Assembly (NCBI GenBank): GCA_964016885.1
Contig: OZ024749.1
Coordinates: forward strand, 48,980,001 to 49,044,000
DNA: 64,000 bases
From: Eledone cirrhosa
Taxonomy: Eukaryota
Direction: 5' to 3'
Shown here: positions 80 through 37,611 of the stretch, one piece after another
Position numbering within the stretch: the stretch's first letter is position 1
How the letters are laid out: every line of letters begins with the position of its first letter
The notes under the pieces: model-generated
What the model was told of the DNA's origin: nothing
The model's input: only the letters and a program-made list of their open reading frames with translations
Databases searched by the model: none
Made by a program: the position numbers and the translations under genes

Positions 80-135
<56 letters not shown>

Positions 136-3518: not shown

Positions 3519-3536
3519 AATAATAATAATAATAAT

Positions 3537-3617
<81 letters not shown>
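3519..3617. repeat. (TAA)n microsatellite
   Basis: Seen directly; explains the poly-Leu ORF 3515..3697. Confidence 0.98.
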
Positions 3618-3618
<1 letters not shown>

Positions 3619-5120: not shown

Positions 5121-5157
5121 AATCTGCCCTATGACGTAAGTTAAATATAACTGCTGT

Positions 5158-5332
5158 TAATAATTGTTTCCCAGTTTGGCACAAGGCCAGCAATTATCCA
5201 GTGCATTACTGGTACTTTATTTTATCGACCCCGTAAGGATGAAAGGCAAAGTTAACCTCGGCGGGATTTGAACTCAGAATGGCAAGGGCTGTAACTCTAT
5301 GCGTCAAAGCATGGCATCCGACCCTCTACCAT
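5158..5332 (-). mobile_element. tRNA-derived SINE (octopod-type), slightly 5'-truncated
   Basis: Reverse complement matches the full copies at 18262 and 51856 (B box GAGTTCAAATCCC; core ctttgcctttcatccttacggggtcgataaaataaagtaccagt). Confidence 0.9.
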
Positions 5333-5455
5333 TTACCTTTCATTCTTTACAGGGTCGTTAAAATAAAGTACCAGTAATACAATGGTGTCTATTTAATCGA
5401 TTTTCCACTCCCCAAAATGTTTGGGTTGGTGCCAAGAGTAAAAATATTTATTATT
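5333..5455 (+). mobile_element. SINE 3' half of an older subfamily, head-to-head with the previous copy
   Basis: cctttcattctttacagggtcgttaaaataaagtaccagt matches the SINE core. Confidence 0.8.
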
Positions 5456-5506
5456 GTCGTTGTTACAGTTGCTACTATTAGCATTACAGTTACAATGATT
5501 TATGTA

Positions 5507-5618
<112 letters not shown>

Positions 5619-6038
5619 TCAACTAACTATAATATGAACTATTTGAACTTATTCAGTACACAAGAATGTTCTTTGCACATCTAAATCATCCAATAAAAAT
5701 GTAATAAATAATATCAATATACATATCCTCTCTTTAGAGAATAAAACATTACCATCCTGATAAGCTGTTCCAGTATATTTGGCACCTATTTAATCCATGT
5801 TCCGCACATTAAGGCCAAGGCAATGAATATTTACATTTCGAATTTGTTCGAACGACTGAAGCACGTATAAACAGAGCAGTAATATTCCATAGTTATGTTA
5901 AATATTAAGAAAGTCTTCACCGGGCTTCATAAAACGATATTTATTTTCCTCGTTTGTATACATTTTATAACATGATAGACCTAGTAAAATCAACTTCAGT
6001 GCTACTACATTCACACACTCACACATATCCATATATAC

Positions 6039-6129
<91 letters not shown>

Positions 6130-6236
6130 TCCATAGCCATTCCACACAAGGGTATATATAGACTGTCATTCACGTATCGTATATATGACTTTCTCTGAAT
6201 ATAGACTATGAAAATAACGATTGGAATACTATGAAC

Positions 6237-6301
<65 letters not shown>

Positions 6302-6886
6302 TTATTTATTTATTTATTTTTATATATGTGTGTGTGTATGAATCTAAATGCCTGGCAATATCATGAAATAAAAAAAATCTATTCAAAACCATTAGAAAAC
6401 ATTAATCCAGTAGACCTTGTACGACACAAATAATGTACAAAATATGTTGATACCATTCTCTCTCTCTCTCTCTCCCCCTCTCTCTGTATCTCACTCTAAA
6501 ACACATAGAAAACTGTTCACGCATACACATATATTTGTATAACCTATTATAATCCTACCAATCCATACACACACTTATCAAAATAGGAAATCAAATATCA
6601 TACGCAAAAATACAAATAATGAAATTGCTGAAAACAAATAAATTAGTAAATACCATATAGACACTTACAAGCCAACGCTTGAAAATCAATAACATACGTG
6701 GGAATTCATTTAAAGACGGAAAAAAATTGTTGTTTTGGAATAAACCCGTAGACAAAACAGACTAAAATAGATGAAAAACTGAACGATAAAACTATATAAA
6801 AATTACAATAAGAATTTTACGCTCAATTGTCACGAAATTAGTAGGAAAATAGTTGTTATTTTTATAATTACCTTTTTTTCTTCCAG

Positions 6887-6920
6887 AACAACGATTAATA
6901 GAAGTGGAAATGTTAGTAAG
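6887..6920 (+). other. Candidate 34-nt internal exon
   Basis: Acceptor ttttttcttccag| and donor AAG|gtatgc; two open frames. No supporting partner exon was found. Confidence 0.25.
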
Positions 6921-7494
6921 GTATGCTTATTTTTTTGTATGACTGATTGTCAACAGCTCTACAATTATTGTTAAATTGGAAAACGGAAGCAATTAATGAG
7001 GTTTAAAGATTAAAAGCCTATTAAAACCCAATGTTATGGAAACGTGCTTCGGATTAGTAGCAAAATAAGAAAAAATATCTATCAATCTAGTAATCGATTG
7101 TAAAATAATCATTGAAAAGCAGTTTTGGGGGTTCAACATGATGATTGCAGCTAGTGTTTAAAGACATGTCTAAGTTTTTCTGATAATCTGATGAATATGT
7201 AAACACATTATCTTCGTTAAAACGACAAATACAACGAATATGTGTAATATTGTCACGTAAAATTATTGAAATTATGAAGCTTCTACTTTTTGCATATCAT
7301 GTTTATTCAAAGGCTATTTCTATTTCCTATTAAGAACATTTAAAGGTATTGTTTTTCGGTTAATATTTCGCTGTGAAGTATTTCCTGGTAGTTCCACGTT
7401 GTCAAGAAATGTTATATATGTGCACAATAGAGGTTACTGTCTGAATAATCCTAGTCTGGAACGAAAGATTCCAGAGCAACCAACATATATTATA

Positions 7495-7562
<68 letters not shown>

Positions 7563-7566
<4 letters not shown>

Positions 7567-7917
7567 CAAATAAGAAACGGAGAATTAGTGTGGCAACGAA
7601 TAAAATGTATTAGATATATTACATCGTTTCTCTGGCGACCAATTCGAGGCACGATCGATGTAATGATCGAACCTGAAATCGCAATGTCATCAGATACGTC
7701 TCGATTCTACGAAGCAGTGTTTTCAAGCTTGATATTTCAGTGTCAGGTTCGATCAACACATCGATCGTGCATAGAGCTAGTCGCCAGAGAAACGATTGTA
7801 ATATGTCTAATACATATTGTTCGTCGCAACACTGATTTTCCGTTTCTTATGTGATACCATACTCTGCTCTGAAACGGCCTACCGCTTACGGACACTTAAA
7901 GCAGCCCACACCATTCA
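7563..7917 (+). mobile_element. Fold-back element family B in (TA)n (PLE pLTR-like, hammerhead-bearing)
   Basis: Inverted arms about 7564-7676 and 7743-7856, a tail of about 60 bp, and (TA)n on both sides. A homologous single-arm copy lies at 45375-45615. Confidence 0.85.
7612..7702 (-). ncRNA. Type I hammerhead ribozyme motif with extended stem II
   Basis: Minus strand reads AGACGUAU-CUGAUGA-(about 56 nt with GCGAUU/GGUCGC pairing)-GAAAC-GAU-GUA-AUAUAUCU. The opposite arm has AUAUGUCU, which completes stem I. Confidence 0.65.
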
Positions 7918-7933
7918 TATATATATATATAAT

Positions 7934-7994
<61 letters not shown>

Positions 7995-7996
<2 letters not shown>

Positions 7997-8178
7997 AACA
8001 GGTATGACCCCGACGGCAGAGCTCAAGCCGTTTCGACGGCTAATTCAGAATTAGCCGTCGAAACGGCTTGAGCTCTGCCTTGGGGGTAATACTTGTTCCT
8101 ATTACGCATTCTACTACCCTAAGTATTGAGTACTTTGATGCGTTATGGTCCATCTGGTTCCTTACCACATTTCCCTCG

Positions 8179-8181
<3 letters not shown>
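7995..8181 (+). mobile_element. Fold-back element family A, copy 1, in (TA)n
   Basis: Palindrome 7995-8099 plus a tail of about 80 bp ending ...ccacatttccctcgtta. Five near-identical copies occur in the window. Confidence 0.92.
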
Positions 8182-8214
<33 letters not shown>

Positions 8215-8949
8215 GAGACAACAAACAGATGTCAAAATGTCTTATTAGTTTCCCGCTTTATATGGAAAACGGGATGGAAAGTTCGATGTGTGCATGTTGT
8301 GTGTGCCTGACTGTAGAGAGTTATAAGCTTATTTGTTCGTATTGTATTCTTGTAAGTCCAAATTGTTCTTTTAATACACCAATTTGTGATTTAAATATAA
8401 ATGTTATACAAATGTGTTTTTTGGTTAACTACAAAGGCGTTATAATCGTTATAATTGTTATCTTTAACTATTCAAAGTGGATGTAGTTATATCAATTATG
8501 AAATAATGCTGTACATATATTTTTTGCTTTAGCCCATTATTTGCTATAGAAGCGAGAACGACATTTGATCGCAGACTATTTGACTTTAGACATATAGAGA
8601 AACAAATATGATACACATATTCTGCTGATTCACAGATTTGAATTATATTAATAATATTGCTTTTGTCTGGAAAACATCAACTTCAGGTTTATTTTATTAT
8701 TAAATTATACAAAATGAATTGAATTGGACACAGTGTATTACTAGTTATTTAATGGATTGTATGGAGAAAAGAAGACTTAAATGTGACGCCAGCTTCTCTA
8801 TGCTATAGACTAAGAGTAATATGTTACCAAAATTGAAACTGTACATATTGCATGCTTACCAAACTGCGATTCTTTTTTAATATATTATTAACATTTTATT
8901 TTTAAACACAAATCAGCTTATTTCGAAGGAAATTGCATTCAATTAAAAC

Positions 8950-9110
8950 CACACCAGTATTTGACGGCTACTTAATTTTATTAACTTTCAGGGGAATTGA
9001 AATGCAAATTAACCTCGCTGTGCTTTCCAATCACTACATAAAGAGGCGTAACTAACTACCGAATGTCATTTTCTCCGACGCTTTAACGATTCTGCTAAAC
9101 CAAAGCCTTA
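8950..9110 (-). mobile_element. Old degenerate SINE copy
   Basis: tgaaatgcaaattaacctcg...ccgacgctttaacgattctgcta resembles the reverse-complemented SINE body and head. Confidence 0.55.
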
Positions 9111-10337
9111 TTATCATATTACCACGTGAATGGATATAAGTAACAAGTTAATTCCAGAAATATCTGTGTCATTACTAAAGCGAAATTACCATAACAACCA
9201 ACATACTAACAACAAACAACAAACAGCGAAGTAGGAAATATATTATTCCCACAAATGTATCATATCTGAAGCGACTCATCCATATGAATGAAAATGAGCA
9301 TTGGATATGTTTTCCACTTACGCATTTAACAACAAGATTATCCATGCATTCATGATATGATATTAAACATGATTTTATTATGAATGTTGGGAATGTTAGT
9401 TATGATCGCGTTATATATATGGACGTCTGAAAGAACGGGGTTTCCTTTCATCATTTTTTTATCATTATTGTTTTAGTTTTCTATATTTTTACCAGGCTTG
9501 CAATTCAAATGTGTTGTTTCGCCAACATTGTTTGATTGGGAAGAATCTATATAACACATTTTCTACATCAGTGAAGCAGTGAATGTTTATGTTCTTACGA
9601 ATATAGAGGCAAACATGCAGCCATATTCATACGATGACATACGCTTGGAAGCATACACATCCACATATAAAACACGCACATAAACACACATAGAAGCACA
9701 TAGACACGTGTAAGATATATCATATCCTATCATATTATATATTTCACACACTATTTTAAAGTTTTATGTAATAAATAGTACTCTTTCATTGGGCATTTGA
9801 TTTATTCAGTTATTTTTTGTCTATAAAATTTCAATATCAATTTCTTGTCTTTCTGTTTCCTATATTTTACATAGTGTTTATGTTCTTCATCATCTCATCT
9901 CAGACCCCTGCCATTAGATTATAATTATGCAAATGAGGGTATTTGTTTCGCAGAAATATATTTTTCAGGAGCTACAGTAAAAATCATGACTCGATGATTT
10001 GAAAATATTTTGTTAGTATGACTATGTTTATCCTCCCATAAAATGTTCTGAGTTTTTATACACAAAATGTGGGTACATTTAACCAAGTCCACTGTTTACA
10101 CGTTTGAGCTGGGTCACCTCCTATCTCCCAATAATTAACTTTCGTGTTTTGAGATACCCTGAAATAATGGCTATAACAGCCGTTCGAGCTTTCACGAAAC
10201 GTTCTACGACAAATAAAATCACTTCCAGTATATTTTGAACGCGCAGATGAAGTATTTGTATTCATACTCATATTAAATGTCTTAAACGTTCCTCTAGGTA
10301 ACTTCTTTTCTTTTATGGACAAATCACTTTATAAAAC

Positions 10338-10828
<491 letters not shown>

Positions 10829-12759
10829 TGTGTCTGTGTATTTACTGTTAACGTGATGATAATAGGAATTGGAATCTTAAAATATTTTATGACCTCAACG
10901 TTGATTGAAACGTATATTTTTAGAAATTGTATTCTTACTGCATGAAACCCAAATAATTTCTTTCCTTTAAGCACGAACCGTTGTTTGCTCTGGTAATTTC
11001 AAACGTGTTATCGCACGTTGTAGTCATTCTACAGACCTTTACGAAATTCCATATAATAAATCATATGGTTATTACAAGAGAAACCTTTCAAAGTCGAATT
11101 GGTATCGTATACGTAAATCTAGTTCAGTGGTTCATAAGGATTATTTCATAGCTGAAATGTATAGCTAAAACTATGGTAAACATTTATAAACCTTTGAAAT
11201 ACATTATAATTCCTTTCGAAAACTGTATTTGTAAGATAAGGCGATAATGTATTTCGGATTCTGAAGTGAGATTCTGAAGTTTGTTTCCTTGTGTTGAGTT
11301 TTTTTTTTATTACTAACACTGTAAAATATTGCTGAGAAGTCTAAATTTCTTGCTTCGTATTTTACGATGGAAATCAATAATAATTACAAGAAAAGAAATG
11401 CTGGATACCTAAAGTCAATAATTTATTGTTTTTCCTTGGTTTATTTTTTCTCTTTTGTTTCGCGCTGTTTTCTTTCAATCAAAGAATTGCGATAAATCAT
11501 AAACAAACTGTTACTCTATTTTTCCAGAGAATTTTTTTTTCGGTGGATTGTAGCACTGAATCTTAAAGAAACGATCTTTAATTTCATTCATCTAAACTAG
11601 ATGTGATAGGCACAGCAAAAGAAATACGAGAGGTGGGGTAGTCAGTTACTGGAACAGTCCATTATTGGTACATATCTTTTCAATCTACCGAACGATCTAA
11701 AGCAAATATCACCGAGAGTAGTGATGAGCTCAGAATTTAATGGGCTGTAACTACACACACATAATTTCGAGTAGTACCCAAGCAATTCCAGCAATTTCCT
11801 ACTATATATATATATTGAATCCTGATACAGTTATCCATATAAGTATTTATACATATGTATGCGTGTATATATATATATAATAAATACACAAAATATACAT
11901 ACATGTATGTCAGTGTCCACATGTTAGCATATGAACGTGTAGGCATATGTGAGCATTTGAATTTCTATCAGTAAAGCTTTTTTCATATTGCTCTATTCAG
12001 TATATTTTTGTTTCTTCAAACGAAAACATATTTCTACATACTCTATAGTTGCAAACTATTAGGGATTGGAGAAACACATTAACCACAAGGTCGATATAAA
12101 ATATGTAGTGATATGTATACAAACTTATATATATTTATATATGTGTGTTTGTGTTTTTTCTGTTTGTGTGTGTGTTTGTGTGTGTTTTTGTTTTGTTTGT
12201 GTATGTGCGCGTTGTTTATATATGTGTTTATGCCTGCGTGTGTGCCTGGAAGACGAATAGGGATAAACATCACTTAAACAATAGGCTAGTAGGCAATATT
12301 TTTCGGGATTTCAGTCGTTCAGAATTAATGATATTCTCTTCATCTTACATTACATCTACACCTATGACATTTATTTTATTATGCGACTCTAGGATACACC
12401 TATTAAATGATGAATGATTAGAAGAATAGCGCTAACGAGACAATGAATGTCGTATAATAAAATGTCTGTTGAAAAAGAATGAAACTATGTTTCGTATTTA
12501 AAGTGTATATAAATATTAATGAAAGTTAATCAATGTCAGCTAAATTATTGAACTGGAAATTCAAGTTTGTTGCATCCCTTCATATTTTGTCTGTATTACT
12601 ATCTAGTTAAAAACAATTACCTGTGTAGTGACTAATATACCACCACTCTATGAATGTTTCTCTCTGCCCTACACACACAACTCGTTTTCGAGTACGGCCA
12701 CTACTTTATATCCATGTAGGAGAAACCCTACCGATGCGCTGAACGAGTGTGAATTTTTA

Positions 12760-13258
12760 GTCCAGCCAGCGACTTGAAAACTCTGGTACAAACACTACAC
12801 TTGTGACAATTATTGACACATAATGCTGGGCCCATGGTACCATGTGACGACAAGTGCAGAGATATTTCCAGATATAAAGCAATGCCTGTGCCGTGTAGCT
12901 TTTATAGTGAGCAAAGGCACTGCACAAAGCCAGTCCCACTCTCTTAACCAAGATGATATTTACCAAAAAGAAGAACATGTCAACATCATTGGATACCATC
13001 AGGGCTGCAGGTGTTATATCAGAGTTTTCCTTCTCCTAGAATTCTGCCTTGACAAAGGCTAAGGGGTCATCTCTCCCGGTGATTTTGGATGGCCATTGAC
13101 TCTTAAGAGCTCATTTGCCCTTTGACAGGTTTTGTCGTTAGTCCTGCAGGATGTCCAAAGTCACCCTCCTCACCAAGAAACCTTGGTGGGGTTGCCAGTT
13201 TAGTCGCTAAAGACAGGTTGTACTGCGATACATGTTACCAGTAGCACCAACTGGTGCT
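12760..13258 (-). mobile_element. Non-coding RTE-LINE 5'UTR-like repeat, copy 1
   Basis: Homologous in inverted orientation to 20678-21212. Contains ctaggagaaggaaaactctgat, which I recognise from RTE-clade 5'UTRs. Confidence 0.65.
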
Positions 13259-14167
13259 ATATATAGATACAAATGTATATATAGACACATGCAAACATAT
13301 ATTGCGTTATTCCCATGTTTGTGTGTGTATGTGTAAAGGGAACTATTTTTCAGTATAATAAAATGGATTTTTATTTTATGACTCAGTCAATAGAAATTTG
13401 TAATAGTTTCTAAAGTCCTGGAGAATGATCTTTGTGAATAACGGGACTAAATGTGGGTGAAATGTTTCGCTTATCAAATATCAATCCTCAATATATTGTA
13501 AAATACATTCCATTTAAAAGTACGGTGATTTTGAGGACATTGAACCGTTATTGTTATTCATACGATCGTGAAGAATCCTCTACTCTGATTATATAAATGC
13601 AATTCGTTAAGACATTTAGACGAAGCTAAATTTGCCTAAACTACATTACTATAATAAAATGAAACGTATTATTATCTAGACAGGATATACCCTGTATAGT
13701 GGAGAATTTTATATACATATTTAACACCAAATAACTTTTCATAACAATCAGATAGAAATAAGATAATAAAAATGTCTTATCTGAGTCTATGTAATTTATA
13801 GTATGATGCGGCGCATCTTGGACATATAAATATATATTTAATTGTCATCTTTGAATTGTGTTCTGTATTTAGTATAGTTACACATGAATAGGACTTATAC
13901 AAGAACACCCAAACTCATATATTTATGTACTCGTAAAAGTAAATCTACATATTTTTATGCATTTATATTATATATTCAAACGTGTGTAATTAAACAAAAC
14001 TTTTTTATGTACTTTCGTACATAAATTGATTCGTAGACATACATAACTCTCAGTACGTATATACATATATATATATGCAGAAAAAAGATAGATAAATAGA
14101 TAGATATATAGATAAAGAGAGAGAGAGAGAGAGGGGGAGAGATAGAGCGATGTGTCCATAATCATAA

Positions 14168-14213
<46 letters not shown>

Positions 14214-14299
14214 CACATACAAATTTATGTATTCCTCTGATCAGATAAATGTGTACCGCGCGCAAAGCACAAGGCACGTCCGCTTCTACAGCAACCCTT

Positions 14300-14700
14300 A
14301 CGTAAGTTTCGGGTGAGTTGGCCTCACATCAAAAATCCTCTACCCAACATTGAACTCAAAGTAGTCTTCGACTCCTAAAATCGAAAGTCAACAATTCAAA
14401 ATATTATCTTTTCCTTCATTGTAACACTGTAGTGGATGATTGCCCTTAATGTATACAGTCAGTTGTGCAGGAAACGAAAGTCTGTATCGGAGACACGTCT
14501 CATCTTTTGTTTTTTGCTTTTTAATTTCTGTTATTTGTCAACTCTAATCAAACAAACTTATGATTGCTGATATTCAATTCATTATAAGTATGACGCCTCA
14601 GAATGGGTGTAATATGAACACTATTTCTGGGAGATTGAATGAGAGTGTACATGCTCAACCCCAAGCTCAAATTCGATTCGATAGAATTGCTTAATTTGAA
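14300..14700 (+). pseudogene. Decayed Penelope/Poseidon-type GIY-YIG remnant
   Basis: PNIELKVVFDS ... NVY...C ... CIGDTSHL ... ES...LNPKLK across frameshifts, matching VVY...C..C...YIGET.R.L ... ES..I...P.LN. Starts shortly after a (TA)n tract. Confidence 0.45.
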
Positions 14701-15199
14701 AGTTTCACTCTGCGGATTGTTTCAAACGAATGGTTATATTTTCGAGTATATGGGCATCCTTTTTGGTTAGCATACATTGAATTCTGGCCCGTAGGGAAAG
14801 CATTTAGGTGATCATTTTGACATTTACAGGGTAATAAAACATACACAAAACCTCATTGAATATTCAATGTATTTGTTTACATAGAATGTGTTCCATCAGA
14901 TCCGAAACACCTGCCACCATATGATGAATAGTATCAAACATTTAGAACCATTATTGTCAACTTGCAAGATTTGATAATACATATCAAGTAATTTACGAGA
15001 TATTTACTTAACATATAATTATTAATTTGTATTCAATGTGAAACGTAATTTCTATAGATATCGCTTTACCTATCAAAATTCATATATACTATGTGATTAA
15101 ATCCTTCGTTTCCCTTATTCACTGATACTTGTCCAATATCACAGCTTAGCACACTAGTCGTAGTACGCCATAGTCTTGCGACAAGCAAAGCATTATGCG

Positions 15200-15450
15200 T
15201 AGATTCTAGTTAACGGAAATCGTATAGCGATGTAACCGCAGTAGTTCTGTGGGGATTTTAACACAACATCGGCCTGGAGATTACCGTCTTTATTGTTCTC
15301 ATATGTCACAGAGTTATACAGGATCATAGACGCTGTAAATCACCTTCCGACTATGCCATTAAAAACATTGAACAGATAGACACTGCGACTAAAATACATG
15401 AACATTTCTTGCCACAGAAGTAATGAAGTTCAACTACGAATACAGTTGGC
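15200..15450 (+). mobile_element. Decayed LINE apurinic endonuclease fragment
   Basis: FCGDFNT motif (GDFN). Confidence 0.33.
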
Positions 15451-16087
15451 ACTGTATACACTCGCATGTGGTTATATATACAAATTTAACAATACAGATA
15501 TAATTAATACATTCTTAATTGATATAGAGTATTGACAAAATAACCTGACAATAATTACAAATGATGCACGCCCATATTTATATAGGTTGTTTGAGGTCAC
15601 ACAAAGAAATTCAGTTTAAAAAAAACACGGGAGGTTCTATCAGAATTAGGATGATAGTTATTAGATATATTTCTCTAAGATGCATTACTGCACCTACTCA
15701 ATGGTAAAATGCAGCTTCTGTATTTAAGACAAGACATTTCGAAAATATTATGGGACTACGTTTAGATTTCTAAAATTAAAGTCCTATACTCAGCATTTTA
15801 GGTATATGTATTTGAAAGGGAAATGAATTCTTAGCGTAGCTATGCCAAAATACGATTCAGTTTTCTGAATCTCTGGCTTGTAGTGTTACAATTAATTGGC
15901 AAATCGATATATAAATACATATATATATATATATATATATATTTTACATTAGATGGCGTGAATTACATAAAATATGATTGATGAAAACATAAATAAATGC
16001 ATGAATAAATATGCTTATATATACATATATATATATATACATATATGTATATCTATATATATATATACACGTACAAACATATACGAT

Positions 16088-16174
<87 letters not shown>

Positions 16175-16548
16175 GTGTATATTTGTGCGTATGTTTGATA
16201 TCCTATTCATTAGTTCAAGGTTCGGCACATGTTTCACAAAAGAATTCTCTGTTTTGATTATAGTGTTGTAACATCGTTTAAATCAATGTTTCTCTTCAAA
16301 GGATACAGTGTGTCGGAAATATGGCGAGCAATATCATTTTTTTATGAGAAGAAAGGAACTATAATATGGAAAATAATAAAGTACTGTTTCTCTTTACAAT
16401 ATTGATATAAACGTTTAGATGGGTAATTCCAATTTTCATCCAATCACCACAAGCCTTTGAATCTGTGTGTGTTTTTTTTTTTATATTTAAATTCATGAAT
16501 TATGTAAAATCAGAATTTAAATGTTTGAATACATATCGACGTGTGTAA

Positions 16549-17040
<492 letters not shown>

Positions 17041-17042
<2 letters not shown>

Positions 17043-17233
17043 ACGAAGGAAATGTGGTAAGGAACCAGGTGGACCATAACGCACCAAAGTACTCAATACT
17101 GAGGGTAGTAGAGTGGGTAATAGGAACGAGTAGGACCCCGACGGGTGAGCTCAACCCGTTTCGACGGCTAATTCTGGAGTCCAGAATTAGCCGTCGAAAC
17201 GGCTTGAGCTCAGCCGTCAGGGTCCTACTCGTT

Positions 17234-17235
<2 letters not shown>
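17041..17235 (-). mobile_element. Fold-back element family A, copy 2
   Basis: Tail 17041-17122, palindrome 17123-17235, (TA)n on both sides. Confidence 0.92.
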
Positions 17236-17270
<35 letters not shown>

Positions 17271-17891
17271 GCGTCTGTTTTTCTACACGTGTGTGTATGC
17301 AAGAAGAAATATGCACACACACATACAAGCACGAATGGTTGGTGTTTCCTTACATATTCCAGCATTGCTCCTTTAAAGCTTATGAATATATGTACTATAT
17401 CATTATATATTTTGACGATTCTAGGGGAAAATTCTTAAAACATTCCTTATTATAGAGCAGTGAAACAACTGAGAAGAACTATTCCTCATTGCAATAAATG
17501 GTTAAAGGAAAGAAATTTTCACTTACCTTATTGCTGAAAACATTAGCAAAACAAAAGCTCTTTAACAGAAAACGTATATGTTAGAAAATATTAGTGGCAC
17601 AATTCGAACGTAAAGATCATGCTTACACCATAACAATTATATCTCTATAGGCGTAGGTGAAATTGGGATTATGTTTTCCCCATTTGATGTAATCATCCCT
17701 AAATGACTTATTTTGAAATTTGCCTATATGTTCTGATGAGAATAATTTGATCATGCTAACTGTTGATACCACATGCGTCTATCAATTGCAATCTTGGTAT
17801 TATGATTGAATTTTGACCTCTTTCTTCGAAACGATTGTAAATTAATAAACACTTATTCATGAGTTTGGTTAAATTTCTCTAATTACAACTT

Positions 17892-17971
<80 letters not shown>

Positions 17972-18261
17972 ATTCGTGTGCGTGCGAGTATGTGTGGAAA
18001 TCTAGCAGTGAATTGCTATGTATTGCAATTGTTCTAGTTTACCCTTATTCGTAAGAAGTATTCGGCTCCTGATGAGTGATACAACTTCAAAATTCTTCCA
18101 ATATTGGTTATTTTAACTGCTGTAACGTGAGTTTGTTAAACATGGTTGGCGAATTACATAAATTAATGTTGGCTTTTGTTTCACAATTTAGCTGATATCA
18201 AAGTGTGATATATACTTAAATCTAATCTATTTTAATACTTCTCTGAGTTGAATATAGGTTT

Positions 18262-18448
18262 GTGGATTGGCAGTATCGGTAGAGGGTCGGACGCCATGCT
18301 TTCCAGCATAGTTACGTCCCTTTACGATCTGAGTTCAAATCCCGCCGAGGTTGACTTTGCCTTTCATCTTTACGGGGTCGATAGAATAAAGTACCAGTAA
18401 TGCACTGGGTAATTGATGGCCTTGTGCCTAAAGTAGAAACAATTATTT
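18262..18448 (+). mobile_element. tRNA-derived SINE, near full length
   Basis: Pol III A box TGGCAGTATCGG, B box GAGTTCAAATCCC, and 3' end gtagaaacaattatt. Confidence 0.92.
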
Positions 18449-18507
18449 ATATAGCATGTATTTTCATTGAGACGCCTACGTGTTAATAGAAAATTACTTT
18501 ATAAAGT

Positions 18508-18545
<38 letters not shown>

Positions 18546-18648
18546 ACCGTCAAATACATTTTCTTTGTTCATAATGTCCCGGAATTAGGTTACACTTGAT
18601 TAGATTCCATTTCTTAATGGTTACTTGTATATAAACGAGATAGGATTC

Positions 18649-18690
18649 ACTTACCTGCAAAGAGAAAAAATATAAATATATGTTAATTAT
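18649..18690 (-). promoter_or_regulatory. Candidate recursive splice site (ratchet point, zero-length exon)
   Basis: Minus strand ataattaac...ttttttctctttgcag|gtaagt: branch-like TTAAC, polypyrimidine tract and CAG directly fused to a perfect donor (junction 18655/18654). Confidence 0.6.
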
Positions 18691-19120
18691 ACATAAATAT
18701 TTATAGCTAATATATATAGATTAGTAACTCAAACAATGGGATTAATAAATTAAAACTCACAAGATATTATACTAAAGATTTAAAAATCACGTAAACCTCA
18801 TATCATACATAAGACACATTAAAGGTACTCTTCATTACAATATCACGTTTTGTAATAACTACTATGTATATTTCGTTGCAAATCATATGTGATAAAACGA
18901 CTACCTGTATGCTTCATTTATACTGTGTAGTTTAAATTAAATTAGCGTTGAAATTATACACACACATTATCACTCAGTTATAAATGTTTATAATCGACTG
19001 TATATATATATGATATTTGTATACGATTTCACTGTAGAAAACTATAGATATTTGTATGGAAGACGAATAATGTTATATAAATAAAGAAGCCACATAGAGC
19101 TATGGGGTTTCACCCTAATC

Positions 19121-19163
<43 letters not shown>

Positions 19164-19223
19164 AAATATTGTGTGTGTGGGTTGTACGGTGAAAAACTGG
19201 TGTCTATCTCGTTTATCTTCTAT

Positions 19224-19296
<73 letters not shown>

Positions 19297-19337
19297 GTAT
19301 ATATATATATGTATATATGTATATATATATATATGTA

Positions 19338-19416
<79 letters not shown>

Positions 19417-19676
19417 AGAACACTGGAAGGTAATATCCGTAGTGGTACAGCACTCAGTCCATGGGACGAGTTAGGTAGAAGTGGTAACACAATAGTTAGT
19501 TCACCATACCGAGAACAATTGTTTCACATTAGCGGATCTTCAGCTCGTACTGGTTATGTTTATACGGATCAGGGAGAACCTCTTCCGTATAAACATGACC
19601 AGTACGAGCTGAAAATGCGCTAAGGTGAAACAATTCCTCTCGGTATGGTGAACTAACTGTCGTGTTACCACTTCTA
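19417..19676 (-). mobile_element. Fold-back element family D in (TA)n/(TG)n
   Basis: Arms 19476-19568 and 19584-19676, tail 19417-19475. Confidence 0.9.
19510..19547 (-). ncRNA. Minimal type I hammerhead ribozyme motif
   Basis: CGAG-CUGAAGA-UCCGCUAAUGU-GAAAC-AAUU-GUU-CUCG, with stem I CGAG/CUCG and a palindromic loop III. A mirrored degenerate copy is on + at 19605-19643. Confidence 0.7.
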
Positions 19677-20115
19677 TATATATATATATATATAGGGGGT
19701 AGATTGAAATATTTATTGATAGATAGATAAATGTCTTTATTAGCCACAAGGGCACACCATAAGGGGACAAATACAAATGATAGATTGATAGTTAGATAGA
19801 TAGATATGGTGATAGATATATATGGTGATCGGATCTTATGCAATGGTATTCTAAGTTTATATATAGCATTTATATAAACAATATGATTTTATTCTCCTTC
19901 TAGAAATTATCACTTAAATCATATTAGGAGAGGTACAAGATTAATTATATGACCATCAGAAATAATCATTAATTCATTAATTACTTTATTAAAATTTCTC
20001 CATATATTTAGTCTATTTTAGATTTACCTTCGGGTCTATATGTTCCATTGTATTCAATGATATTCATATAAATCTACGTACATGGTATTCAACGTCTATG
20101 CATAGACTGCCGTAA

Positions 20116-20168
<53 letters not shown>

Positions 20169-20443
20169 GAAAATTTCGCTCCACATGGCTGAATACAATA
20201 AATGCAATCTGAGCTTTTCGAATATTAATAATAACATTCAATTCGTTTGCAATTATGCAAAAAAGCCTCAATTATATATCCATGTCATTAGAATGAAAAC
20301 TTCATTCTTGCTCTTGTGCTGGTATGCGATATTCTACTGACATGGCCATGAAATTGAGGCTTGTTTGCATAAATGCAAACGAATCGATTGTTATTATTAA
20401 TATTCGAAAAACTCAGATTATATATGTATATATATATATATAA

Positions 20444-20538
<95 letters not shown>

Positions 20539-20677
20539 TATAAAGAGATAGAGAAGGAGTGAGAGGGAAAGAGAAAGATAATATATCATGACAGTGCTAA
20601 ATGCATGAGGAGGCACAGAAATGGTATAGCGGTGGCATATTTCCTTAGTATATGCATGTACATATGTGTATCCATGT

Positions 20678-21212
20678 CAGGTCACTCTTGGGTGATACTC
20701 GTCACATGTAATCCAGTACGACCTGTCACATGGTAGGGTCGTTGGCGGCTTAACCGGCAAACCCACCAGGTTTACTTGGTGAGGATTATGATTTGCAGGA
20801 CAATAAACAAAACCTGACAAAGGGTGGAAGAACTCATAAGAGTCAACGGCTATCCAACAGTATTTAAATATGTATATACACATGTACATATCTGTGTGTA
20901 TGTATATGAGTATATACATGGGTCCTTGTGTATGTATATGCGGGGGAACATAGAAATAGTCGGGCTGGACACCTGATCGCGCGGTTAAACCACTGGCAGT
21001 GAAGGACTCCTAGACTTTGTCAGGGCATTCTTCTAGGAGAAGCAGCTCAGGAAACTGGGATATCTCCGATATAAAACTTGCGGCTCAGGGGTTAACGATG
21101 ATGTTGATCTTTTCTTCTTTTCGGGTTATAACTACTGTCGCTCAGAGAGTGGGATTGGCTCAGTGCACAGTTTTTCGTCACTTTAAAAAATATCTTCACG
21201 CACAGGCATTGC
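20678..21212 (+). mobile_element. Non-coding RTE-LINE 5'UTR-like repeat, copy 2
   Basis: Matches the reverse complement of 12880-13250; interrupted by a TA/TG-rich stretch at about 20860-20940. Confidence 0.65.
20694..20757 (+). ncRNA. Degenerate HDV-like ribozyme at the element 5' end
   Basis: P2 CCAGU, P3 ACG, L3 ACCUGUCA, P3' CAU, then GGUAG-GG, a short P4, J4/2 GGCUUA and P2' ACCGG (ACUGG in copy 1). Confidence 0.45.
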
Positions 21213-21841
21213 ACAATAGAATTAGTTAATAATTATTAATAACGGAATATCGTGCAATGGCCATACTCGTAACGAGGGGACAGGCATCATGTATACATGT
21301 ATGCATGCTTGTATGTATGCTGAACATGACCCGAAACCTCTTGAAACCATAGTCGGGTATATGCGTTTCTACATGTTTCTATACATTCATGTGCGTGTGT
21401 ACGTGTCTATCTCTCTGTGTGTGTGTGTGTGTGTACAAATATATGCATGCAAGAATATATACAAAAATAATTATGTATTTACACACATCTTTATTACAGA
21501 TAAATGCTTAGGGTGGTCGTCATGACATGTCGTCATAGATACTCTCTAATTTTAGCTGATTTCATTCGTTTACAGTTCTGAACTCAGCTGATTTCACCTA
21601 CCTAATAAGACAGGGTGAGAGGAAGCAATACAAAAAGCAGAAACTGATAAAATCAATCCCAATATTGGATTAGGGCTATATTTATAGTCATCATGATGAT
21701 GAAAGGCAAACACTATCGCGGAGAGATTTGAGCTTTGGAACAAACATCGCAAAATTAGCTATGTTCTAAAACATCGTTTAGTTATAATGACTTACGCACA
21801 TATACACGAACCAGCACATACGCATATATACATACACACAA

Positions 21842-21872
<31 letters not shown>

Positions 21873-21875
<3 letters not shown>

Positions 21876-22263
21876 TGTTATACTTTGGGAGGGTCATGTT
21901 GCGAATAAGAAACACACGCACCATTTGCTTTCACTTCAATTTATTATAATACATTTATAAATTTAGGAATTTATAAATTTCCGGTTGGTTGGTTGGTTGG
22001 TTGGTTCTAAAACCAGATGGTTGTTTATATATTGTCAAAGTGATTTCGTCACACATTTTGTGACCTCTTCAGTGACTGGGGATTCTTTTCTTTCTTGTTT
22101 GTGCCTCTCCTTTGTTCTGTCATACGACATCTTGATTTTGTGTGTGTGAAAGCAACTGGTGCGTGTGTTTCTTATTGGCAACATGACACTCCCAAAGTAT
22201 AACAATATCGGTTTCAACACACGTTTTCAGATAAAGAATATTGCTAAACAAATTCAGAAACGA
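21873..22263 (+). mobile_element. Fold-back element family E in (TA)n
   Basis: Arms 21872-21934 and 22146-22208, tail 22209-22263, internal (GGTT)n, (TA)n on both sides. Confidence 0.88.
22034..22076 (-). ncRNA. Hammerhead-like motif with degenerate stem III
   Basis: GUCA-CUGAAGA-G-GUCACA aaaug UGUGAC-GAAA-UCACUU-UGAC, with stem I GUCA/UGAC. Confidence 0.6.
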
Positions 22264-22265
22264 TA

Positions 22266-22307
<42 letters not shown>

Positions 22308-22460
22308 TACATATACACACACACACACACATATATACATATATATACATATATAATATATATAAATATATACATATATATGTATGTTAATATATATAGT
22401 TATACATATATATATATATGCATATATATATATATATACATACACACACACATGCACACG

Positions 22461-22523
<63 letters not shown>

Positions 22524-23071
22524 TATATATAGTTATACATATATATATATGCATATATATATATGTATACATATTTTAAATATAGATGTGAATGTAAGTA
22601 AAATCAATATTATATGTGGAGACAATAATTTCTGTGTATATATAAATATATTATATTCGATATAAACAGTTCCTGGTTCCTGAACCACAAAGGCTCTGAA
22701 TAAATTTCAGGTTAATTGCAAAATGATTTGATGCAAATTACCATTCTGTACACGCAACGTATCTACAATGGGTTCATTATAAGAATATTAAATCTTAAGA
22801 TGTAAGTCAAGATCTTATCGAAACACCATGTTTCTTCTATATGGTGAAGATGTGTTTTTTTCCTTTAATTTTATAGTATTCCGTGAGGTACGAACCAAAG
22901 TAAACATTTCGTGTTGGTAATATTGTTTGTAAAGCTATACTTATTATATATGCAAGAAAATACACACACAAACATGCACAGAGAATGAGCGAAGTGAGGA
23001 GAGAAAAACATATATCTATCTATATATATATATATTCGCATACATTTAATATACATATATATACACATACA

Positions 23072-23519
<448 letters not shown>

Positions 23520-23720
23520 TTACATACGTCCCTCTCTGCGATGATGTTTTCAAAAATATGTGCAATCAACGTGGTTAAATTGCTGCTGGAATCGTGCCGT
23601 ATCAAGATGTCCACTCCATTAGATGAACTGCTCATACTTTCCGTTTTCTTAAATTACCTCATGAGGTTTCCAGAAACCCGGAATTGCAGGAATACTCACT
23701 TTTGCTAGGTTAATTAATGC
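23520..23720 (-). mobile_element. Decayed RTE-type apurinic endonuclease fragment
   Basis: SSSNGVDILI...LTTLIAHIFENII resembles GVGILL...L..I..IS.RII. Confidence 0.38.
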
Positions 23721-24730
23721 CGAGCATTCACAATTTTAATTAGACCGTCTTAAACACTTATTTCTGCTTATATTTGATACACTCCAGGATAAACACACAA
23801 ACGTTGTAGAAGTCGAAGTCCCTTTAAATAAATACTAGGAGTAACGTCGCCCGTTATTTTAAGGACCGACAATACATATCATGAGCAAATTTCTGGTGCA
23901 AATTGTAAAAGAATCAGATACAAAGATTTTACACTCTGGCAATAAAACGCTTGGAAAATGAATTCCATATTTTCTCTTTAGTTGTTATATGCAGTTCACA
24001 TTATAATCTCATCATCTCATATGTTCACGTGCAAAATATTGCGATATGACATGCTTTTAAAATTGCTATTTTCCATCGATATCCGTATTGATGAACTACA
24101 TTCTTATATACCTACTGAAATGAACATTTTGCACCGTATAGAAATCAAATTATGTCTAAAACTCAACTATATTAAGAAATCCCATAAGTACATTTTTGCA
24201 ATACACAACAAATGTGATGTTTGCATAAAACTCTAATTCTGATTTTTTTTATTAGAAAAATAAAGCAGATTTAATGTCAGACAATCATTACACCTTCAAC
24301 ATCAATTGCTAAGTTTCATTCAAGCCCTGCTTTATAAATGTCTTTAAAACTAACATGTCTTTATAAATACCCTAATTATGTGTCATACTATACCATAATT
24401 TGAATTTAGGCCGAAACCAAATTCATTTTATTGTTTTGAATTAGATTTTAATGTTGGCTTTAGTATCGGTTACATCTTCAATTATCCAATATACACTGAC
24501 ATTTCCATCTACATGTAATCCTGCACCCGAAATGGACTTGTCTGATGTTAACACAATCACTTTGATAAATATCCCGTTTTATCATGAACAAGGTCTGTAC
24601 TTGATCGCCGGGCACTGTTTGAAATAATGATATGCACATCTTCCTCATATATTTAACACGTCTTAAATAAGAGTGTCAGATAACCGCCTTCTTTCTCTTA
24701 TTGTTAATATATATATACACACAGGCACAA

Positions 24731-24802
<72 letters not shown>

Positions 24803-25292
24803 AACTGGGTGTTTGTGCGTATCTGTGTACGTGGTATGCTATTGTCATGTAAAATAAATAAATTAAAATACATTATTCTTATTTGTTATGATGTGTATGC
24901 ATTAATTGGAGATGACTTAATATCGTTTCATTTTGTATTCCTGAAGCTTCCTCTTTAATTAAAAAGTACACGAAGCATAATCATTAATTGGCTTCTGGTT
25001 GTTTTCCAAGTTAATTATACCATAATAAGGAATATATTTCTAATGCCCTACATACAAATTATTTATAGATTACAATGTTCTTAATGGGAATATATTCTTA
25101 AATGTATCTGCCATACATATATACACATAAGCATAATATATATATATATATATATACATGTGTGTGTTTGTGTAATTATGTGTGTCTGAGTCAGTATATA
25201 CTTCTGATGGATTGCTAATACGGATTAGACTGGATAGACTGATTTCTAACTGTAACGCATCATTCTACATATAGACACACATACGAATACAG

Positions 25293-25505
<213 letters not shown>

Positions 25506-25893
25506 GTATTAGAAAATGGGAAAATATGAATTAATACATCAAATTGAATTAACTACATATAATATTTAGTGAAACAAAACTACCAGGCATTATTGCGATG
25601 GAGTCGTATATACTTTTATGAAAACAAACATTAACAAGTTAAAAACAAAGCTTTCCAAGTTATTTGTTAGACGTCTCTTTATACTGGAGATGGAAGAACG
25701 TCATTAGTGCATCCAAAAAGAAATGTGACTGGTATTAAAATAGATAAGGTCCTCCATTATGATTCAAGGACATCTTAGAAACAAACAATTATTTCATCTT
25801 AACAAAGTTGCTATTCACATTTTGAATGGAAATCAACACGTCTGGATACAAATATATGTTGGTATACACGATGTATATCTATCTGTTTGTGTG

Positions 25894-25930
<37 letters not shown>

Positions 25931-25932
<2 letters not shown>

Positions 25933-26134
25933 AACCAGTAAGTCCCCGACAGCTGAGCTCAAGCCGTTTCGACGGCTAATTCTGGACCAGAATTGGTCCA
26001 GAATTAGCCGTCGAAACGGCTTGAGCTCAGCTGTCGGGGTCTTACTGGTTCCTATTACCCACTCTACTACCTCAAGTATTGAGTACTTTGGTGCGTTATG
26101 GTCCACCTGGTTCCTTACCACATTTCCTTCGTTA
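25931..26134 (+). mobile_element. Fold-back element family A, copy 3
   Basis: Palindrome 25931-26052 plus tail, (TA)n on both sides. Confidence 0.92.
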
Positions 26135-26304
26135 TATATATATATATATATGTATATTCCCTCTGATAGTTTGTATAAATATTGTACATAGATCTATAGA
26201 ATAGGCATACCAACTCTAACACATATATATCCTAGAAACGATCGTAAAATGAGGATTTTTTTTAATATAAGGAACTGTTTCTTTGTTTATTCATTATTTT
26301 ATTA

Positions 26305-26387
<83 letters not shown>

Positions 26388-26546
26388 AGAATTAAACAAG
26401 GTTCAATGAATACATCAAATGATGAGTTTTACAATAGATTGGAAGCACTCTAGAGAAGATGTTTTCCATAGTTATTAATATTAATTCAAAATATTATAAT
26501 AAAATATAATTGATCACAAGAATATATAAGTTGTTAATATTTTGAA

Positions 26547-26610
<64 letters not shown>

Positions 26611-26711
26611 GAGGGAATTGTGGTAAGGAACGAGATTGATCATAACGCACCAGAATACTCTATACTTAGGGTAGTAGAGTAGGTATGTATGTATTATCTT
26701 AAATACAAATG

Positions 26712-26758
26712 AAATTTACAGTACTAGAACTGTTTCGGTCGTATGATATCTTCATGGA
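26712..26758 (-). ncRNA. Hammerhead motif (C3 mutated)
   Basis: AUGAAGA-UAUC auac GACC-GAAAC-AGU ucuagu ACU-GUA, with 5-bp stem III ACAGU/ACUGU. Confidence 0.65.
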
Positions 26759-26760
26759 AA

Positions 26761-26807
26761 TTCCTGATGATTTCATAGGAAATAAACAGTTTATGTCCTG
26801 TAGGAGA
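26761..26807 (+). ncRNA. Hammerhead motif (G12 mutated)
   Basis: UUC-CUGAUGA-UUUC auag GAAA-UAAAC-AG uuuauguc CU-GUA-GGA. Confidence 0.6.
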
Positions 26808-27081
26808 CATGTCTATAAATAATGATAAAAACGCCTATACTCTACCATTGTATTGAGTTCCAATTTTAACTGTAGTTACCGATGTATGTGTGTGTTTGTT
26901 GATTTATGTGTGCGTGTATATTTACATATACAGTTATCGATGCGTATGTCTCTGGTAACTGATTTGTTTCTATACGTGTATAGTTTCATTTCTATTTACT
27001 ACTTATAATATTTTTAATGTTTCAAGTTCCAATGTCTAGATGATTCTTTCTGAAATTTCAGATCCGGATGAATGGAACAAG

Positions 27082-27146
<65 letters not shown>

Positions 27147-27251
27147 GTATAATAATATGTGTATAATATATATATATACACATATTATTATACATATATA
27201 TATATACATATATATATACATATATATATACATATATATATATGTATAATA

Positions 27252-27343
<92 letters not shown>

Positions 27344-27542
27344 ATATATATATGTATATATATATATGTATATATGTATATATATATATATATGTATATA
27401 TATATAAATATATGTATATATATATATGTATATATATATAAATGTATATATATATATATGTGTGTATATGTGTGTGTGTGTGTGTGTATAACCATATATA
27501 TGTGAATATATATATATATATTCACATATATATGTATATACG

Positions 27543-27592
<50 letters not shown>

Positions 27593-27593
27593 C

Positions 27594-27683
<90 letters not shown>

Positions 27684-27893
27684 GGAACGAGTAGGACCCC
27701 GACGGCTGAGCTCAAGCCGTTTCGACGGCTAACTCTGGAATAAAAAATATTTTAGTCCAGAATTAGCCGTCAAAACGGCTTGAGCTCAGCCGTCAGGGTC
27801 CTACTCGTTCCTATTACCCACTCTACTACCCTAAGTATTGAGTACTTTGGTGCGTTATGGTCCACCTGGTTCCTTACCACATTTCCTTCGTTA
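27684..27893 (+). mobile_element. Fold-back element family A, copy 4
   Basis: Palindrome with a 16-nt AT-rich loop plus tail, (TA)n on both sides. Confidence 0.92.
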
Positions 27894-27916
27894 TATATAT
27901 ATATATGTATATATGT

Positions 27917-28361
<445 letters not shown>

Positions 28362-29025
28362 TATATATATATATGGATTTCCAAATAAGGACAAGAACAT
28401 TTTATGAAAACTTGTTCACGTGACACCCATAATTTCATTCATAACCAACCCCAAAAAAGCCTTCGTGAGCCCCTTTTTTCAAGTAAAAAGAAATTCAAAC
28501 ACTCATATATGAAAAAACAACCTGTGACAAACCCACCACCTAGTTGAAGAACTATTTTAACGCGAACTGGCGCGAAATTTATTATAATTATTGACAAACC
28601 AATCAAATTACTTCTCGAAAAACCTGGCATTTCGAGCCACTTTTTCCATATAAAACAAGTAACATTCAGAGACCAACAAGATGTGAGAAAAGCCACAGAT
28701 CCTCCATCTCAACTCACCTTTTGAAAAGCAGAAAAACTGCGAAACCGGTAAAGGAACCAAATAAATATATATATTTAAAACAAAAATAAGACTCCAGTTG
28801 CATTTTCGATTTCATCTCTTTTTCTTTATACACTCACTCGTGTAGGACACCTCGGTTATTTTTCATTTTGTAAAAAAAACCTCAAATACTATATATATAT
28901 ATATATATATACACACACATAAGAATAATCAGGGGGGTGGATAAGAGGCTAGCAAGGACGGAACTAACTTTTCCTTCATCAGTTGTCTACTGGGGGTCAT
29001 GGATATTTCAACTCATTAAAGACAG

Positions 29026-29062
<37 letters not shown>

Positions 29063-30119
29063 TCGATTGGGGGTGTGGGGGGGTGTATGTGTGTGTGCGC
29101 GCGTGTGTGTGTGTATGTGTATGTGCGCATGTGTGTGTGTGTTTGGTTATTTTCACTTCAGTTCTTCACATACGAAATAAATAAAATATACTTTCATAAA
29201 TTATATAGTAGAATACTCCATGCCAGCGCAGATATGCTTATAATTTTTTAAATGGAAACACTTTATCACCAAATATGCGTGTAACATTTTATGTGTAAAC
29301 ACTTCGATAATATATTATTTAATTGATTAACTTCTGTTCACATCTTTCAGTTTCTAATGAAGAAAAATATAAGAAATGCTCTCAGAATACTTGAAATAAT
29401 AGAGCAGATATTTTGCCTGATAATATTTCCTATCTGGTTAAGAAAACAATCGAAGTGTATTCTCCTGCAGAAGAAACTCATAAATGTAAATGAATGTATT
29501 ATTCTAAACGTTAAATTTTTTATTCGGCTTTTGTAACATTTCTTTTTATGCACTCAATATTTATCTAGGTTTCAATTGCTTCTTTTCATTTATATATGTA
29601 TATTTATTTTCTTTGTGTATCTATATAAAAACAGTTTAACGTATCAAATATTTATGCGTTTATTATTACGGTTAAATATCTGGTCTACTATTGAATGTGT
29701 ACTAAATTAGATGGGTAAAAATTCGGACAATCATCTTATATGCCATAAAAATAGTCAGAATTGCAAAAGACATTTCTATATGTCAACATGAATGTACTGA
29801 AATACACGAACAATATTGATAATTCAAAACACATAAATAAGGTTACATACTTCTTAAATATATTTCGTCGTGTCTAATACAGAAAATGTTAAAAAAGTGA
29901 ACTCATCATTGAAACTTTGTTGTTCAGAATAATATCTAGATTAACAACAATTGTTGATTGTTTAAGCATTAAGAAATACATTATGTTATTTTGAGACAAA
30001 CAACTTGATAGCTGCATACATACTTTTATGTTCTCTAAGAACACTTTAAAAAATACTATTAATATATCCTTCTCTTAATTTTGTACTTTTCTCATCTAGA
30101 TTCCTATTTACTTTTCGTT

Positions 30120-31100
30120 TATTCCAATTAGGGTTTTCGATTATTCCTTAACAATTATCATTTCCGGCTATTATTTGAAGTAACTTTATACCCTCTATTT
30201 GACTTAAATAGGTTCGTTAATTGTTTTTCCTGTAGTTGTATAATTCTATAATTGTAGCTATGCAATTTTTGCTGTCTTTATTCAATACTTCCCAGGTAAT
30301 TTGAATGTTGATGTTATTTTTTATTTGATTAGCCAGAGATAAGTGTGCTTCATAATCCACTTGACCTATCATTGACGGCACTACTGCAACTATCACTATC
30401 ATTTCTTTTCATGTATTGGAACAATATAGGATATATTTAGATATAACCACTCCACATTGGTTATATTTAAATATATTCTACCTCACATACTATTAACCAC
30501 TTAGATAGAAATCTATGCAGCAGACAGAATATTAAAGATTTCTGATACGCTATAGTGTGATAGGTAATGGGAACAGATAAAATCAGTTGATATTTTTATT
30601 GGATATTTTGAACAACAACATGAGATAACTTTGTAGATTAAAATTCAGATTATCGATAATTTTATCCTATCTCCATTATGGAATTGTTACACTATCTGAG
30701 TAAATAACATCATTATTTGTGATGTTTTCGGTACGTCATGATAATGTAGAATTGAATAACAAACACTTGATAATAACAGAATTGTTAAAAGAAGTAGTGG
30801 TGAACATCGTATTTATCAAGAGATTCCAGTACAAGGAAACTACACTATTAAACGGTAAGTATGTGAGATAGTCAGAAACATTCAGACATGGAGAAACACA
30901 TGCAATTATATATACATATATTGTGGTTTGGATATATATGTATATATATATGAAAATTTATTACGATTTTTTTTTATAATATAAGGTTTAGTTAATATAG
31001 GTAAACAGTATTTAAATAAATATGGTCTGACTTTATTATTCCATCCAAAATATATGTTAAACAGAATAATCCTCATTTCCAGATGTAAAATAAAATGCAT
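30120..31100 (-). pseudogene. Decayed Penelope-like retroelement (RT thumb, linker, GIY-YIG)
   Basis: Ordered motifs on the minus strand: TKPYIIKKNRNKFSYIYTYISKP (cf. YKPYRKPN...YI...SNHP), KYILY (GIY-like), QIKNNINIQITWEVLNK and LQEKQL (cf. LK.NNI...I.W.IL.K...C.LC..EK). Confidence 0.55.
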
Positions 31101-33612: not shown

Positions 33613-33676
<64 letters not shown>

Positions 33677-34505: not shown

Positions 34506-34564
34506 AAGAGAGCGAGAGAGAGGGCGAGAGAGAGGGGGATAGAGAGGGAGAGAGATATATATAT

Positions 34565-34652
<88 letters not shown>
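34506..34652. repeat. (GA)n microsatellite
   Basis: Seen directly. Confidence 0.97.

Positions 34653-34655
<3 letters not shown>

Positions 34656-35854: not shown

Positions 35855-35891
<37 letters not shown>

Positions 35892-37581: not shown

Positions 37582-37611
<30 letters not shown>

Follow-up and report, generated by a model that had tools for sequence, protein, structure and literature searches.

The question raised by this locus is whether a motif in which a splice acceptor is fused directly to a splice donor marks a point at which a very long intron is removed in steps and, if so, which gene that intron belongs to. The window, that is the whole 64-kb stretch of DNA that was analyzed, is C9:48,980,001-49,044,000 of a 3.0-Gb genome (C9 being the window's contig), and its minus strand carries the following features around the flagged motif (window positions; a slash marks the splice junction):

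18690-18649, minus strand: flagged fused acceptor-donor motif, TTAAC plus pyrimidine tract plus CAG/GTAAGT
18682..18686, minus strand: branch-point-like TTAAC, with a putative branch A at 18683 and the junction 29 bases downstream
18659..18670, minus strand: 12-base pyrimidine tract, inside a 50-base AG-free zone that is 89% A+T
18655..18657 (AG at 18656-18655), minus strand: CAG acceptor, candidate ratchet point, with its junction at 18655/18654 (C9:48,998,655/654)
18649..18654, minus strand: GTAAGT donor, proposed to be regenerated if exon 1a (below) joins the site
18548..18654, minus strand: 107-base candidate cryptic recursive exon with a weak donor, ACG/GTAGGA, at its end

Recursive splicing has been described in flies, mice and humans (PMC13149111), and the branch points of fly ratchet points lie at -36 to -21 with a peak at -30 (10.1101/006163). 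The flagged site has a juxtaposed AG/GT with a strong consensus (CAG/GTAAGT), a potential branch point A at -29 (within the range of -21 to -36), a tract of 12 pyrimidines, and no AG in the 50 bases 5' of its acceptor; in these sequence features it looks like a ratchet point. The first-pass annotation had called it a perfect recursive splice motif on the minus strand, and TTAAC, tract and CAG/GTAAGT are indeed all present. The pattern Y10-N-YAG-GTRAG has a single match in the window, the flagged site, and in 100 shuffled versions of the window it occurs on average 0.01 times (one match, in one of them). That the motif is the pyrimidine-rich tail end of an ordinary exon was considered and rejected, since A+T makes up 89% of the DNA upstream and none of the candidate exons ends at this point. 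Another minus-strand arrangement, 1.1 kb further downstream (17521-17548), has CTAAT and a short TTTTCAG acceptor separated by seven bases from GTAAGT, and looks like either a 7-base microexon or a weak AAG/GT site.

The same annotation described the sequence as non-repetitive, which holds for the junction. Comparison of the fetched DNA with itself by BLAST leaves 120 bases around the junction unmasked, and a 431-base query against the whole genome finds itself and 15 weak look-alikes (80-87% identical over 48-69 bases), all of which fall in an AT-rich zone just upstream of the tract (18667-18736) and none of which covers the junction. The flagged junction itself is unique DNA. Because the AT-rich zone has look-alikes elsewhere, part of the high upstream score of the site (below) may reflect low complexity. 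Similar short pieces of this zone are also present in three contig sets (X1-X3) from one sample, possibly the source of the assembly, in which the stretch lies in one piece with no differing letters and no joint.

The window itself contains microsatellites and LINE remnants, and no host exon is recognizable within its 64 kb. Degenerate LINE copies lie at 57363-60043 (plus strand) and 37894-40162 (minus strand), with a 478-residue reverse-transcriptase-like frame at 58224-59660. A 1.66-Mb walk around the window identified a minus-strand coding exon, 1b, that matches PF00135 (1.4e-21), has neuroligins as its best PDB matches, and is 94% identical to the O. bimaculoides neuroligin. Six neuroligin exons map on the minus strand of C9, and exon by exon they are 85-98% identical to the 888-residue O. 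bimaculoides protein; the predicted product has an esterase-like ectodomain (PF00135) closest to those of neuroligins, and a signal peptide and transmembrane segment as judged by eye. A Pfam search of the genome gave one more match that resembles the first exon, at 49.677 Mb and co-oriented with 1b; we call it exon 1a. The gene is thus laid out as follows:

C9:49,677,550-49,677,040, minus strand: exon 1a, far-upstream first coding exon
C9:48,547,321-48,546,871, minus strand: exon 1b, first coding exon of the known form
from C9:48,162,755, minus strand: exon 2, apparently shared by 1a and 1b
down to C9:48,051,329, minus strand: exons 3-6, neuroligin body
window 1..64000, minus strand: whole window, inside the predicted 1.514-Mb exon 1a-to-exon 2 intron

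Exon 1a has an intact 511-base frame that starts at an ATG and encodes a hydrophobic leader; it is 48% identical to exon 1b. The genome contains two matches to the first-exon peptide (all seven candidates scored) and one neuroligin body, the next match to which is only 31% identical (all nine scored). The donors of both first exons are in phase 1, the phase that exon 2 needs, and these relationships suggest that exon 1a is an alternative first coding exon of neuroligin. The intron behind exon 1b is 384 kb long, and from the exon 1a donor to exon 2 the distance is 1,514,284 bases, a length that depends on the assembly since the interval contains three 200-N gaps.

Does this interval hold other sites like the flagged one? 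Acceptors were scored with a model trained on 42 of the 60 fetched members of a genome-wide motif class (discussed below), all from contigs other than C9. The flagged acceptor scores 20.4, which ranks sixth among the 68,374 minus-strand AGs of the 1a-to-exon 2 interval; at this score 0.002 fused sites are expected in the interval by chance. Among the minus-strand acceptors of the interval that score at least 5, GTAAGT follows immediately in five of 243 (0.062 expected, P 7e-9), and among the corresponding plus-strand acceptors in none of 239; the excess persists at all nine score thresholds, which were chosen after the data had been seen. None of the 89 other orderings of the GTAAGT hexamer follows more than one such acceptor, and with the flagged site left out the chain still has a P of 6e-7. 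Its members are:

C9:49,275,655, minus strand: candidate ratchet point 1, with a clear 101-base cryptic exon and a strong donor at +101
C9:48,998,654, minus strand: candidate ratchet point 2, the flagged site, with weak downstream donors only, at +107 and (still weaker) at +30
C9:48,714,467, minus strand: candidate ratchet point 3, strong acceptor/GTAAGT
C9:48,410,198, minus strand: candidate ratchet point 4, strong acceptor/GTAAGT
C9:48,258,089, minus strand: candidate ratchet point 5, strong acceptor/GTAAGT
C9:49,414,001 and C9:48,334,490: weaker candidate sites

The segments between exon 1a, the five sites and exon 2 measure 401, 277, 284, 304, 152, and 95 kb, and the sites are spaced more evenly than random placement would have them (P 0.03 for the spread and 0.049 for the longest gap). 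No minus-strand AG/GTAAGT is present in the 112 kb examined downstream of exon 2. The five sites are stronger than the ordinary neuroligin acceptors, which score between -18.1 and 6.7 in the model; since genuine acceptors can score so low, weaker ratchet points could be missed. Other candidates were rejected as repeat copies: an AG/GTGAGT at window position 28719, which recurs at C9:49,159,941, and a plus-strand site at 63107, which resembles C9:49,312,467 and 49,410,168. One weak plus-strand match in the interval is a repeat copy as well.

It is probable, on this arrangement of exons and sites, that the flagged site is a ratchet point in a 1.5-Mb neuroligin intron, and it is likely the second of at least five sites that would divide the predicted 1.514-Mb stretch from exon 1a to exon 2. 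With five same-strand sites in it, the intron is likely cut out in pieces of about 100,000-400,000 bases. An earlier proposal, made from the window alone, placed the window inside a giant intron that is taken out of a minus-strand transcript in steps, and this prediction agrees well with a minus-strand neuroligin gene that brackets the site and with four more sites on the same strand and none on the opposite one.

By analogy to fly ratchet points (10.1101/006163; PMC8605326), a promoter at exon 1a would drive a transcript across the whole interval, and the exon 1a donor would be joined to the first site (C9:49,275,655), regenerating a consensus AAG/GTAAGT donor. This donor would in turn be joined to the flagged site, 277 kb further on, and splicing would continue site by site as transcription proceeds, bypassing exon 1b (which has no strong acceptor before it) and ending at exon 2. 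Each site is probably defined by the short cryptic exon that follows it, which would then be skipped because the regenerated donor wins; retention of the 107-base exon at the flagged site would introduce a stop two codons in. The last two sites might also serve transcripts that start at exon 1b. The predicted product is a second neuroligin whose first approximately 170 residues are 48% identical to those of the known form and whose body is the same.

The flagged site could instead be a working ratchet point of a different RNA from the minus strand, either a long non-coding one or a neuroligin mRNA of the 1b type whose first exon is non-coding, lies further upstream and has escaped recognition; its partner would then not be exon 1a. 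Non-coding exons are invisible to the scans made here and the 1a-to-exon 2 product was not found, but exon 1a is intact, it is conserved, and there is no second gene body for it, and we consider such a transcript unlikely. A 1b-type mRNA of this sort would require an acceptor in front of exon 1b, and the best in the 1.5 kb upstream scores -6.9, though this value is to be read beside the similarly low scores of the real neuroligin acceptors given above. No nested protein-coding gene was recognized by Pfam among 136 of the top 150 coding-like segments (the other 14 being four that cross locus borders and ten that overlap neuroligin exons), a scan that can miss short or unusual exons; the sequence examined reached 36 kb upstream of exon 1a. 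The scan gave seven hits, all to reverse transcriptase, endonuclease or Pif1. The Pif1-helicase fragments lie at C9:48.869 Mb (L020:8700-9890) and are presumably what is left of a Helitron. Strand skews and counts of poly(A) and U1 motifs show no asymmetry in the stretch between 1a and 1b; as the intron from 1b to exon 2 shows none either, this comparison is uninformative. The accession numbers of the O. vulgaris models for 1a and 1b have five others between them, which leaves room for further genes in that stretch.

Counterparts of exon 1a with 77-83% identity are present in O. bimaculoides, O. vulgaris, cuttlefish, and further contigs. The octopus and cuttlefish annotations examined treat the exon as an orphan fragment, a stand-alone protein of 133-259 residues. 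In these records similarity extends as far as the donor (less far in the cuttlefish model), and the read-through tails are unrelated beyond a few residues. In both O. bimaculoides and O. vulgaris the 1a model and the neuroligin body are on equally sized contigs. Among the matches listed (15 of the 34 members of the largest cluster), every full-length neuroligin of octopus or cuttlefish has a 1b-type start, and a search for a protein that joins exon 1a to exon 2 found none, which by the search's own grading is weak evidence. The stand-alone annotation is what would be expected if exon 1a and the sites were unlinked today, the exon being a short secreted fragment or trans-spliced and the chain a relic or decoy. 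Yet it is the exon and the position of its donor that are conserved, not the tails past that donor; exon 1a spans only positions 2-97 of the 515 in the PF00135 profile, and five perfect GTAAGT motifs should have decayed without selection. This explanation is accordingly quite improbable, and linkage of exon 1a to exon 2 through the chain is the reading favored here.

The frame of exon 1 meets a TGA stop at 18649-18647, two codons into the 107-base cryptic exon, and recursive exons that are retained are known from human CADM2 (10.1101/2025.08.14.666599) and from fly genes (PMC8605326). The site might on these grounds be the acceptor of a regulated poison exon that shuts down the 1a isoform, with re-splicing only secondary to this role. 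However, the regenerated donor would match the consensus, unlike the weak donor of the cryptic exon itself, and donor competition of this type favors skipping (PMC8605326), which makes a primary role as a poison exon highly improbable.

How common such motifs are bears on what one of them means. The pattern Y10-N-YAG-GTAAGT matches the genome 148 times, compared with 80 matches for the reversed pattern and 61 for a pattern with a shuffled donor hexamer, and both differences are significant. About 70-85 of the 148 matches are an excess and the rest, about 40-55%, may be due to chance. Neighboring motifs no more than 750 kb apart form 22 pairs, where simulation gives 7.0, and in 21 of the 22 both are on the same strand; the control set has three such pairs, one of them co-oriented. 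After removal of four likely duplicate pairs (two that are sequence duplicates by alignment and two with identical 20-mers) 17 of 18 remain co-oriented (P 7e-5), the alignment check for duplication having covered 60 of the 148 loci. The duplicated copies observed (L066/L067, L070/L071, L084/L099, and L057/L077) are 76-98% identical, some of them across contigs. Four co-oriented minus-strand motifs within 1.2 Mb at C4:227.98-229.16 Mb probably mark another mega-gene.

Features outside the search pattern were compared between 57 class members (the 60 fetched less three duplicates) and 30 of the 61 matched controls. YTRAY is present upstream in 38 of the 57 and in seven of the 30, the median AG-free zone is 55 bases in the class and 36 in the controls, and AG and GA counts are 51 to 73 in the class versus 51 to 53 in the controls. 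GTRAG at +20 to +100 is found in 17 of the 57 class members, significantly more often than in a local control (nine of 72, P 0.013) and not significantly so relative to the matched one (four of 30, P 0.07). The upstream score of the flagged site is above those of all 30 controls and 54 of the 57 class members. That it is simply the best-looking motif of an AT-rich window, one of the 60-80 genome matches that the controls (61 and 80) lead one to expect by chance, is very hard to credit given its upstream features, the 0.002 expected at its score in the interval, and the same-strand host and four further same-strand sites (P 6e-7) that were found afterwards.

Ratchet points have been described in the Drosophila genes Ubx, kuz, osp, fz, luna, and Bx (10.1101/006163; PMC8605326), in introns of 11-133 kb with segments of 2.6-64 kb (mean 18 kb; 10.1101/006163). 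The candidate sites found here resemble them in the fused AG/GT, a putative branch point near -30, several sites in one predicted long intron, and a candidate out-of-frame cryptic exon behind the site. They differ in scale, the predicted intron being 1,514 kb with segments of 95-401 kb (among which weaker sites may have been missed), and the Drosophila sites are backed by RNA and conservation whereas those in the octopus are predictions from DNA. Human CADM2, with two sites (RS1 and RS2) in a 767-kb first intron (10.1101/2025.08.14.666599, which cites Sibley 2015 for them), is also a synaptic adhesion gene and has what is predicted here: a giant first intron, a recursive exon with a premature stop, and more than one promoter. 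Unlike CADM2, neuroligin would have at least five sites in twice that length, and both of its first exons are duplicated coding exons that carry part of the esterase-like domain.

Aplysia has a single neuroligin homolog (PMC3229692), and likewise there is one neuroligin body in this genome. In the honeybee there are five genes of 31-246 kb (PMC2570956); in this genome the source of diversity would be a choice between two N-terminal exons for a single body and not gene duplication. We lean toward the broader view that coleoids make two neuroligins from one gene by way of alternative first coding exons, the far one reached over a 1.5-Mb intron removed by ratchet points about 280 kb apart, and that octopus mega-introns contain tens of such sites, the flagged one among them. 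The first-pass annotation was not aware of well-characterized ratchet points in molluscs, and within the openly accessible literature no study of recursive splicing in molluscs was found, the few papers that touch on both giving single mentions of molluscs or cephalopods. Nothing in the same literature connects neuroligin with recursive splicing. The available passages on octopus neuroligin introns or alternative neuroligin promoters do not contain this gene structure, and those of PMC3229692 mention alternative promoters for neurexins only. The terms "Nlg" and "neuroligin" are absent from nine supplements of PMC6110457, which may list sites by coordinate only.

If the reading given here is correct, this would be, to our knowledge, the first recursive splicing found in molluscs, with steps more than ten times the fly average cited above; each step of the spliceosome would span about 280 kb, and the intron would have twice the length of that in CADM2. 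It would also add an unannotated neuroligin isoform as a source of synaptic adhesion diversity. Giant introns may or may not need recursive splicing, and those of lungfish are described as not relying on fixed recursive sites throughout (10.1101/2024.12.11.627982); this locus provides exact junctions that can be tested in cephalopod neural RNA. The motif class, for its part, gives a means of locating further mega-genes that cephalopod annotations have broken up, and of establishing their orientation. Exon 1a, whose conservation spans octopus and cuttlefish, merits a separate study as an alternative N-terminus. Two ENA contigs (P0031 and P0032) carry neuroligin first exons of other animals, 43-44% identical and called as orphan fragments; their frames end at the same donor position as exon 1a, which hints at a long first intron elsewhere. 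Between exons 3 and 4, the neuroligin models of O. sinensis and cuttlefish have an alternative insert of 14 residues (P0005 compared with P0008).
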